Made by a program: the position numbers and the translations under genes
Notes under the pieces: model-generated
The model's database searches: none
What the model was told of the DNA's origin: nothing
What the model saw: only the letters and a program-made list of their open reading frames with translations
In this document: one piece after another, positions 517 to 653 of the stretch
Position numbering within the stretch: the first letter of the stretch is position 1
How the letters are laid out: each line of letters starts with the position of its first letter
Virus record (IMG/VR): IMGVR_UViG_3300033075_001021
Direction: 5' to 3' (one strand)
DNA: 64,000 nucleotides
From: a virus
Taxonomy: Duplodnaviria; Caudoviricetes

Positions 517-653
517 CGGACGTGAGGGGAATCGAACTTAATGACCTTATCGGTCAAACCCTGACTTTAGCGTGACAAGCTAATTGATTTTGTTGCTGAA
601 TATAATCTTGACAGATTACTTTTTTTAACGTTATACCACTTAACTACACGTCC
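517..653 (-). tRNA. tRNA-Asp(GTC) interrupted by a 45-nt and a 21-nt insertion
   Basis: acceptor GGACGTG/CACGTCC+G73, anticodon arm TTAGC-TTGTCAC-GCTAA; deleting 584-628 and 538-558 restores a canonical cloverleaf. Confidence 0.8.

Follow-up and report, generated by a model that had tools for sequence, protein, structure and literature searches.

To our knowledge, self-splicing group I introns are considered the only interruptions of tRNAs in bacteria and phages, and in bacterial tRNAs they lie in the anticodon loop; the catalytic core of a group I intron takes at least ~200 nt and that of a group II intron at least 400 nt. Conserved tRNA introns that were termed 'enigmatic' have been reported from the Lak megaphages (Devoto et al. 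2019, PMC6784885). The gene studied here resembles tRNA-Asp(GUC) and carries an insert of 45 nt (insert 1) and another of 21 nt (insert 2); it lies near the start of a 64,000-nt stretch of DNA from a virus of the Caudoviricetes, which was analysed as a whole and is called the window below. It is like the Lak tRNA genes in being oversized and in belonging to a very large phage (genome ~304 kb) of what appears to be a Bacteroidota host. As in Lak, insert 1 is conserved in related phages, and both inserts are too short to self-splice and have no known mechanism of removal; some Lak inserts contain tRNA-like parts, and the window has a tRNA nested within another RNA at 680-865. In the Lak example compared here, the tRNA-Tyr of supplementary Table S6, the insert is placed at the canonical 37/38 site of the anticodon loop by tRNAscan in eukaryote mode, whereas insert 1 lies at 26/27 and insert 2 at 52/53 in tRNA numbering, and the gene described here further differs from that tRNA-Tyr in having two inserts and an intact 7-nt anticodon loop, in showing no sequence similarity to it, and in that its insert 1 belongs to a module also present outside tRNA bodies.

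Non-canonical tRNA introns of archaea are cut at a bulge-helix-bulge by an endonuclease, after which a ligase acts (PMC4090602). They resemble the inserts described here in being short, in numbering up to three per gene, and in occupying sites that include the D/anticodon junction and the T arm. Unlike in archaea, however, no bulge-helix-bulge can be drawn here, the EndA family was not found in related complete phage genomes, and the host type is bacterial, as indicated by a tmRNA gene and Bacteroidota-type promoters.

Long extra arms are carried by class II tRNAs and allo-tRNAs (Mukai et al. 2017, PMC5389517). In these, and in aptamer-tagged tRNAs, a helical arm at the hinge serves as a handle for recognition by proteins, and the RNA can stay active in translation. 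All these arms are situated in the variable region (44-48) and have short linkers, whereas the arm of the RNA described here is on the opposite strand (26/27), has a single-stranded linker of ~27 nt, and is accompanied by a second hairpin in the T stem. The YrlA RNAs, found in bacteria and phages, are Y RNAs that resemble tRNAs (Chen et al. 2014, PMC4201824; Rfam RF02553). They too are tRNA-shaped with an added protein-docking helix and are processed by tRNA enzymes, and they do not decode; unlike them, the RNA described here has a full anticodon arm and acceptor stem, and it lacks a Ro60-binding motif and does not match the family model. RNAC and RNAD of phage T4, which are encoded distally in its tRNA cluster, have tRNA-like ends. 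Unlike our RNA, these are not cloverleaves with identifiable anticodons, and they are not expected to be related to it in sequence. They are stable small RNAs of unknown function (PMC9697503). In the literature that we searched, neither a tRNA with an arm at 26/27 nor the module is described.

Architecture and genomic setting of the tRNA-Asp(GUC)-like gene

A preliminary description of this DNA had reported a tRNA-Asp with inserts at 584-628 and 538-558, and these coordinates and both inserts proved exact (Table 1). In the cloverleaf read from 653 to 517, every helix is fully paired, U8 and A9 are both present, and G26 is position 629. All the canonical features were found, namely a 7-bp acceptor stem, a GG-containing D loop, a 5-bp anticodon stem, a 7-nt anticodon loop, U33, and a T loop of the form UUCRANY. 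With its 137 nt and two interruptions, the gene is not an uninterrupted cloverleaf of ~70-95 nt. ARAGORN made no call on the unmodified gene, and returned tRNA-Asp(gtc) after in silico removal of both inserts or of insert 1 alone, which bears out the earlier statement that excision leaves a canonical tRNA-Asp. The Rfam tRNA model RF00005, searched with Infernal, aligned over its positions 1-71 with both inserts looped out, at 28.1 bits and E = 0.0023 (1.4 kb searched), just short of the gathering score, which is 29.

In the minimum-energy fold (z = -3.6 as compared with shuffles), each insert forms a hairpin, and the acceptor and anticodon stems are present. About 27 nt of insert 1 are A-rich and predicted to be single-stranded. 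Insert 2 makes the T stem a three-way junction and isolates the G53-C61 pair next to the T loop. As had been proposed, both inserts are too short for group I or group II introns, being an order of magnitude below the size of these, and no Rfam intron family matched in the region.

Table 1. Coordinates of the tRNA-Asp(GUC)-like gene, its parts, copies of the module, and the CCA-adding enzyme gene (window positions unless stated otherwise).
Feature	Position	Strand	Details
Whole tRNA-Asp(GUC)-like gene, 137 nt	517..653	-	Infernal RF00005 end to end; 8 identical assemblies
Acceptor stem	653-647 / 524-518	-	7/7 pairs
Acceptor-stem 5' strand	647..653	-	Pairs with 518-524; 4/7 pairs changed in the L038 ortholog, all pairing
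D arm: 4-bp stem, 7-nt loop with GG	630..644	-	Near-invariant among orthologs
Insert 1, 45 nt, between G26 and anticodon stem	584..628	-	
Parts of insert 1, 5' to 3'			A-rich linker, 7-bp hairpin, UUCAGCAA motif, A/C-rich linker with AUCAA end
Insert-1 hairpin: 7-bp stem, 4-nt loop	602..619	-	Present in minimum-energy and centroid folds
17-nt core common to module copies: hairpin 3' arm and UUCAGCAA	593..609	-	Regex matches
Anticodon arm, 5 bp, loop UUGUCAC	567..583	-	Anticodon GUC at 576-574
Variable loop, 4 nt	566-563	-	
Insert 2, 21 nt, within T-stem 5' strand: 5-bp hairpin, 5-nt loop	538..558	-	
T-stem 5' strand, divided by insert 2	AGGG 562-559 and G 537	-	
G53, T loop UUCGAUU, T-stem 3' strand	525..537	-	3/5 T-stem pairs changed in ortholog, all pairing
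Acceptor-stem 3' strand and discriminator G (517)	517..524	-	CCA not encoded
Embedded module copy in tRNA-Tyr(GUA)-like RNA (the other is in the tRNA-Asp(GUC)-like gene)	L081:12318-12432		
Spacer module copy (F-type) between two tRNA-Leu genes	5831..5917	-	
Spacer module copy (F-type) directly after tRNA-Met gene	38929..38976	-	
Third spacer module copy, after tRNA-Tyr	in L081		
CCA-adding enzyme gene	30784-31992		

The window contains 45 tRNA genes recognized by ARAGORN and one tmRNA gene, on the minus strand throughout. The gene under study is the final unit of a Phe/Glu/Asp/Ala tRNA operon, in which three further tRNA-Asp(gtc) genes were called by ARAGORN upstream of it. An ENA contig of 303,928 nt showed 98.9% identity to the first 5 kb of the window. 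Among the products of the window are Rnl1-type and Rnl2-type RNA ligases, a DNA ligase, a P-loop kinase and a CCA-adding enzyme (Table 1), as well as several homing endonucleases and a TonB-dependent receptor. A small RNA ligase gene is located ~480 nt downstream of the gene; in relatives, this type of ligase sits at the ends of tRNA operons, including those of relatives without such inserts, which fits a role in tRNA repair. The gene lies 25 nt upstream of two conserved reading frames, a mini-ORF and an ORF that lacks a canonical start codon. The element TTTG...TAnnTTTG is repeated in the window and matches the promoter consensus of Bacteroidota; this type of promoter element points to a host in that phylum.

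Several aberrant tRNA-like genes are present at operon ends in these phages, and at 680-865, adjoining the gene, a tRNA is nested inside a tRNA-like RNA. An ORF of 119 aa within the operon encodes a mobile HNH endonuclease and is a poor marker of synteny. About 12 other tRNAs of the phage carry an extra arm at the opposite strand of the same hinge, in the form of long variable arms on Glu, Asp, Val, Cys, Asn, Ile, His and Met tRNAs. This genome habitually places extra arms at the hinge.

Conservation among assemblies and in a sister lineage

The 137-mer was letter-identical in 8 assemblies from different samples (ENA, 2 JGI metagenomes and 5 Logan), so that an assembly artefact can be dismissed. 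All 8 represent near-identical strains and carry both inserts with zero differences, while an inter-tRNA spacer 450 nt from the gene is variable among the same assemblies. A sister lineage, comprising the viral contig IMGVR_UViG_3300020577_009929 (L038) and the metagenome contig L063, showed ~82% DNA identity over 655 bases at the window start, the gene included. Insert 1 was retained in both contigs at a length of 45-47 nt. Of its 45 nt, ~4 differed; no change fell in the hairpin stem or in the motif AUAUUCAGCAAC, 2 loop bases differed, and the linkers were of slightly different lengths. Insert 2 was missing from both contigs, in which the T arm is continuous. The preliminary description had made its reading depend on conservation of the inserts, and this was found for insert 1 but not for insert 2. 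As judged by comparison of these orthologs, insert 1 is shown to predate the split of the two lineages.

Eight stem pairs differ between the lineages (4 in the acceptor stem, 3 in the T stem and 1 in the anticodon stem), and all eight still pair, five of them by double changes; the anticodon-stem change in the ortholog is U-A to U-G. These compensatory changes show that the tRNA body carrying insert 1 has been under structural selection, and since the stems were kept foldable with insert 1 in place, an old pseudogene is ruled out. They say nothing of the function of the window copy since it gained insert 2. The identity elements for AspRS, G73, G2-C71, G10, GUC and C38, were present in the genes of both lineages. 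By these comparisons, the locus is an RNA gene that descends from tRNA-Asp(GUC) and is maintained by selection.

When viral contigs were scanned for exact patterns taken from either half of the gene (5' and 3') and from the insert core, one orthologous contig only was recovered, the other matches being 3' ends of unrelated tRNA-Asp genes or coding DNA. One metagenome scan contributed L063, a close variant. A general search for tRNAs interrupted at 26/27 recovered the L038 ortholog only, the rest being false positives. The gene was not found in the more distant relatives G001, G002, G006, G007 and L132, in which operon ends are built differently.

Insert 2 was unique among the window and all related DNA compared. 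With no second copy there, it was rejected as a mobile or repeated element. A local duplication was also rejected, as the match of 9 of 11 positions to the adjacent segment of anticodon stem and variable loop was equalled by 14% of shuffles. Insert 2 is best described, on present comparisons, as a young, lineage-specific, self-folding insertion.

One possible explanation for this distribution is that the window copy was recently disabled, insert 2 having knocked out the T stem of a working tRNA-like gene that bore insert 1. In agreement with this, insert 2 is private to the window lineage and divides the T stem at a distance of just one pair from the T loop; the three other Asp(gtc) genes in the operon would allow a disabled copy to persist, aberrant tRNA-like genes do occur at operon ends, and the compensatory changes could all precede the insertion or lie on the sister branch. 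However, insert 2 is a perfect, self-contained hairpin that leaves the five T-stem pairs and the other stems intact, no stem shows decay, and the 137-mer has zero substitutions across the 8 samples in which the nearby spacer varies. We therefore regard a recent loss of function as unlikely.

A recurrent helix and UU(N)CAGCAA module and its occurrence in a tRNA-Tyr-like RNA family

In a regex search, the module core A(A/G)GA(U/A)(U/G)..UU(N)CAGCAA occurred at 3 sites in the window versus 0.013 expected, and 2 further copies were found just past the window start in the same genome (L081), giving 5 in total. The copies in the window are always within tRNA arrays and on the transcribed strand, and orthologous copies were also present in related phages. 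Two of the five are of an embedded form, in which the start of the core pairs, as the 3' arm, with an upstream 5' arm to make a short hairpin. In both, the anticodon stem follows directly on the module, the last part of which is an A/C-rich linker with AUCAA; the hairpin of the tRNA-Tyr-like copy differs from that of insert 1 in 2 pairs, each by a double change. The remaining three copies, each directly after a tRNA, are of a spacer form with the partner arm 40-70 nt downstream, where a long stem closes a small tRNA-like element containing the motif and a T-arm-like hairpin. The spacer element that follows tRNA-Leu is kept in 5 other viral contigs, and its T-arm-like hairpin covaries. A pattern that had been built from other copies also matched the copy after tRNA-Met and those in other contigs, which thus provide independent confirmations.

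Insert 1 had earlier been described as a circularly permuted copy of a dispersed motif. The full 18-mer named there occurs only once in the window; what survives of the description is a looser core at three sites. As the partner arm is upstream in the copies embedded in tRNA bodies but downstream in those of the spacers, the term 'circularly permuted' is apt. Judged from this distribution, insert 1 is one copy of a recurrent phage module and not a private intron.

Other functions for insert 1 were considered. A promoter was rejected, the only sigma-70-like match being 9 of 12 positions and at chance level, and no terminator was present on the RNA strand. The opposite strand has a hairpin followed by a T run, which is missing from the Tyr-like copy. 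The loop of the insert-1 hairpin was rejected as a pseudo-anticodon, since it reads GUCA in the window but GAUA in the ortholog. We found no complement of the linker and motif elsewhere in the window.

A scan of viral contigs with the module core of the tRNA-Tyr-like RNA yielded many carriers, with at least 10 distinct sequences. In this family, which had no Rfam match, the acceptor and T stems covary, the module motif is invariant, and the hairpin loop ranges from 4 to ~14 nt. There is no D stem between the acceptor stem and the module. Removal of the module would therefore not yield a canonical tRNA, indicating that the module is integral to the Tyr-like RNA. This is the strongest argument, by homology, that the module may likewise be retained in the RNA described here. 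The anticodons of the two RNAs that carry the embedded module, Asp and Tyr, are of the GUN type, that of the queuosine family, a lead drawn from two cases. Neither tRNA finders nor Rfam detect the module, the widespread Tyr-like family or the tRNA-like spacer elements, all of them RNA families that lack annotation.

RNAalifold paired the motif UU[G/A]CAG of the Tyr-like family with the family's own anticodon loop CUGUAA, and in three members the motif contains a perfect UAC codon. The partners are otherwise invariant, and hence covariation lends no support to this pairing. The motif UUCAG of the RNA described here was not complementary to its own GUC loop.

Possible retention of the inserts as accessory arms, and competing explanations

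We prefer the hypothesis, to which we give about an even chance, that the inserts are retained accessory arms and that insert 1 is a docking or recognition module. According to this hypothesis, the RNA would be transcribed as the last unit of the Phe/Glu/Asp/Ala operon, its 5' and 3' ends would presumably be made by RNase P and a nuclease, respectively, and the phage enzyme would supply CCA. Insert 1, situated at the hinge of the D arm and the anticodon arm, would remain in the mature RNA as an extra arm, and the single-stranded CAGCAA beside its helix would be a recognition site for a protein or another RNA. Such an arm could dock a phage or host factor, or could alter recognition by tRNA-directed enzymes and nucleases, and insert 2 may be tolerated because it is self-folding.

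The region of a tRNA formed by the D stem and position 26 contacts helix 69 of 23S rRNA, and a bulge of 45 nt at this place may consequently be incompatible with decoding. The RNA may thus be a non-decoding tRNA look-alike, chargeable or not, instead of a decoder of GAC/GAU. Engineered tRNAs with aptamer hairpins on the extra arm are still active in translation (PMC7590224). Further points speak against retained arms: the A-rich single-stranded linkers are unusual for a stable structural arm and would be exposed to nucleases, insert 2 isolates the G53-C61 pair and is missing from the sister lineage, and the clean removability to a textbook tRNA is equally predicted by an intron model.

The preliminary description had offered two readings, spliced introns and docking hairpins. 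The latter fits best, with insert 1 conserved and the module integral in the Tyr-like RNA; spliced introns found no positive support. Splicing would require that an endonuclease cuts both junctions and that the phage kinase/phosphatase and RNA ligases rejoin the ends to give the 71-nt tRNA-Asp, and we consider this unlikely. The acceptance by ARAGORN of the sequence without its inserts is in line with it, as are the Rnl1-like and Rnl2-like ligases and the P-loop kinase encoded in the window, and the small RNA ligase that is found nearby and at tRNA operon ends in relatives. The module also occurs in inter-tRNA spacers, i.e., in segments discarded during processing, insert 1 is mostly single-stranded and spacer-like, and Lak megaphages have unexplained conserved tRNA 'introns' (PMC6784885). 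However, inspection of the sequence and folds showed a bulge-helix-bulge to be impossible at either junction: the ends of insert 1 are A-rich and unpairable, and insert 2 gives a three-way junction and not staggered 3-nt bulges around a 4-bp helix. The tRNA-splicing endonuclease family (PF01974) was not found in 2 complete and 3 partial related phage records, and RtcB was present in only one of those relatives. Self-splicing by a group I or II mechanism is ruled out by the size of the inserts, and two types of junction would require two specificities. The same module in the Tyr-like family cannot be an intron, because its flanks form no tRNA. Finally, the sets of phage ligases and kinases are already accounted for by the repair of nuclease-cut tRNAs, a role established for Pnkp and Rnl1 of T4. 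Splicing would have to rely on some unrecognised endonuclease. A specific version of it, in which true introns are removed by a protein-only cut-and-rejoin pathway of the phage, a putative endonuclease reading the helix-plus-CAGCAA module before end-healing enzymes and RNA ligases act, is in our estimation rather unlikely.

A role as a processing or regulatory element, in which the gene would provide RNase P/Z punctuation for the 5' end of a downstream mRNA comprising an odd ORF and an RNA ligase, or UUCAG would make a specifier-like contact with an anticodon loop, appears improbable. The gene is the last unit of the operon and precedes the mini-ORF and the ORF without a canonical start by 25 nt, which suits punctuation, but this would require neither a conserved anticodon arm, nor Asp identity elements, nor the module. 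As for a contact, the Tyr-like UU[G/A]CAG is complementary to its own anticodon loop, and UUCAG is complementary to CUGAA in the loop of tRNA-Phe(GAA) of the same operon. Against this, the motif of the tRNA-Asp(GUC)-like RNA does not complement the anticodon loop of that RNA, complementarity over 5-6 nt is fairly frequent by chance, and the pseudoknot, both partners of which are invariant, lacks covariation.

It is highly improbable that the RNA is a tRNA-shaped Y RNA, with a T-stem hairpin (UUGACC...GGUC) that imitates the helix bound by Ro60 but has its strands exchanged, for although UUGACC pairs with GGUC, GACCGA is one mismatch from GGUCCGA, the vertebrate Ro60 contact sequence (PMC4201824), and YrlA-type RNAs with tRNA-like domains are found in phages (PMC4201824), the helix has just 5 bp, no bulged C and no match to the bacterial motif GNCGAAN0-1G, the hairpin is missing from the sister lineage, no similar handle was found in tRNA arrays and no TROVE/Ro60 gene in complete relatives, neither the window nor the related DNA compared has a homolog of the one sub-threshold TROVE-like protein, that of the relative G008, and RF02553 did not match at the locus, the only YrlA match in the window being an artefact of two adjacent tRNAs. 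A 483-aa DUF2828/DUF7788 protein (45626-47077) was unrelated to the G008 protein and had no sequence match in the PDB.

Taken together, these data describe a selectively maintained tRNA body with a module at its hinge and a hairpin in its T stem, neither interruption being capable of self-splicing or bearing the marks of a known intron type. If the inserts are removed, they would reveal an RNA-processing pathway new to bacteria, and as true introns they would represent the first instance in a bacterial system of tRNA splicing by enzymes and not by the intron itself, at non-canonical positions. If, as we prefer, the inserts are retained, the RNA would represent a new tRNA architecture, in which a natural, portable RNA handle is grafted on tRNA scaffolds, and it would bear on how large phages customise translation, on the evasion of tRNA-targeting defences, and on tRNA engineering.

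Paired and previously missed tRNA genes

Many amino acids are served in the window by two tRNA genes that share an anticodon: a gene of normal length and a gene of 84-91 nt, the additional length being accounted for by a long variable arm. Long-armed genes occur even for Glu, Asp, Val, Cys, Asn, Ile, His and Met, whose tRNAs usually belong to class I. The same pairing of normal and long-armed genes was also present in the relatives G001, G002 and L003. A stem scan or sub-threshold Infernal matches detected further tRNA-like genes that had been missed by ARAGORN; among these are a third gene for tRNA-Ala(tgc) and a third for tRNA-Glu(ttc) with a long variable arm.

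tRNA-like features and associated genes in the window, in DNA of the same genome ahead of it (L081) and in other contigs
Feature	Location	Strand	Source
Long-variable-arm tRNA genes (examples)	1386-1473, 2361-2448, 7231-7316, 7894-7981	-	window
Long-variable-arm tRNA genes (further examples)	27158-27245, 27806-27889, 28042-28132, 38981-39066	-	window
tRNA-like genes of the window missed by ARAGORN	932-1005, 1295-1378, 24746-24834, 27252-27342, 29008-29093	-	
Structured spacer elements directly 3' of tRNA genes	5831-5917, 38929-38976	-	window
Structured spacer element directly 3' of tRNA gene	L081:11900-11957	+	
Structured spacer elements			other contigs L135, L138, L141, L146, L148
tRNA-Tyr(GUA)-like RNA	L081:12318-12432	+	window's genome, ~7.5 kb ahead of window start
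tRNA-Tyr(GUA)-like RNA, other members			L154, L155, L157, L161, L162, L166, L182, L185, L197
Small Rnl2-family RNA ligase and DUF5522 gene			other contigs L039, L042

The Phe/Glu/Asp/Ala tRNA operon and its surroundings

A larger RNA at 680-865 (-) encloses a complete tRNA-Ala(tgc) gene (763-836), and possesses its own acceptor-like stem of 8 bp, including three G-U pairs, and a T arm. Its fold was no better than those of shuffled sequences (z = -1.5), and no counterpart was found in the sister lineage L038. The operon end of G001 has a comparable outer stem, with a tRNA-like element nested inside. In a 378-kb relative (L132:5905-6130, +; NCBI GCA_040384025.1), other aberrant tRNA-like genes close the Phe/Glu/Asp/Ala operon; one of them resembles the insert-bearing tRNA-Asp-like gene of the window in its discriminator G, D arm and T arm, while having an abnormal anticodon loop and no inserts.

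Downstream of the tRNA-Asp-like gene lies a conserved coding frame of ~150-158 codons (14-553, -), whose conservation in L038 is at the amino-acid level. No ATG, GTG or TTG start occurs in this frame ahead of codon ~85, a conserved 12-codon mini-ORF (MKRLDAL...) overlaps it in a different frame, and the same ATGAAA..GCTGGACGCATT start recurs in G001, ahead of an AlaRS-like frame. This points to non-canonical initiation, frameshifting or coupling.

A small Rnl2-family RNA ligase of 216 aa is encoded just ahead of the window start (L031:14701-15351, +), and in several related phages this ligase, followed by a DUF5522 gene, stands directly 3' of the last tRNA of a tRNA operon. Inside the Phe/Glu/Asp/Ala operon of the window, a 119-aa ORF (1556-1915, -) encodes a small HNH endonuclease whose family is very widely distributed; it is a mobile gene between tRNA-Phe and tRNA-Glu. 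The sole stretch within the first 5 kb that varies among near-identical strains is 1089-1177, an inter-tRNA spacer made of ACCAGATAWT-like repeats, in which an ENA contig carries several indels.

The ORF-free stretch that separates this operon from the R2K ATP-grasp gene contains a partial match to GOLLD RNA (RF02032; 2772-3186, -). Its score of 74 bits (E = 2.7e-17) does not reach the gathering score of 150. A sub-threshold YrlA match of 31 bits (25514-25625, -) was rejected as an artefact: it combines the T arm of a tRNA-Arg with the D arm of a tRNA 5' half (~25520-25571). This truncated tRNA is itself genuine.

A tRNA-Tyr-like RNA family and structured spacers

The tRNA-Tyr(GUA)-like RNAs form a widespread, unannotated family of 114-130 nt, for which no Rfam match was found. 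The acceptor and T stems covary and the anticodon loop is invariant across the family. The D stem is absent, and the members carry an additional hairpin together with an invariant UU(G/A)CAGCAAA. Members with GUUGG in the D region have the T loop UUCGAUU, and those with GUUAG have UGCAAUU; this correspondence, which is based on one clade split, may represent tertiary covariation.

The structured elements in the spacers consist of a closing stem of 7-11 bp followed by UUCAGCAAA, and in at least the tRNA-Leu spacer copy a T-arm-like hairpin adjoins the 3' strand. The element 3' of tRNA-Leu(caa) is kept across relatives, and its T-arm-like hairpin covaries. The spacer elements following tRNA genes are tRNA-like minihelices.
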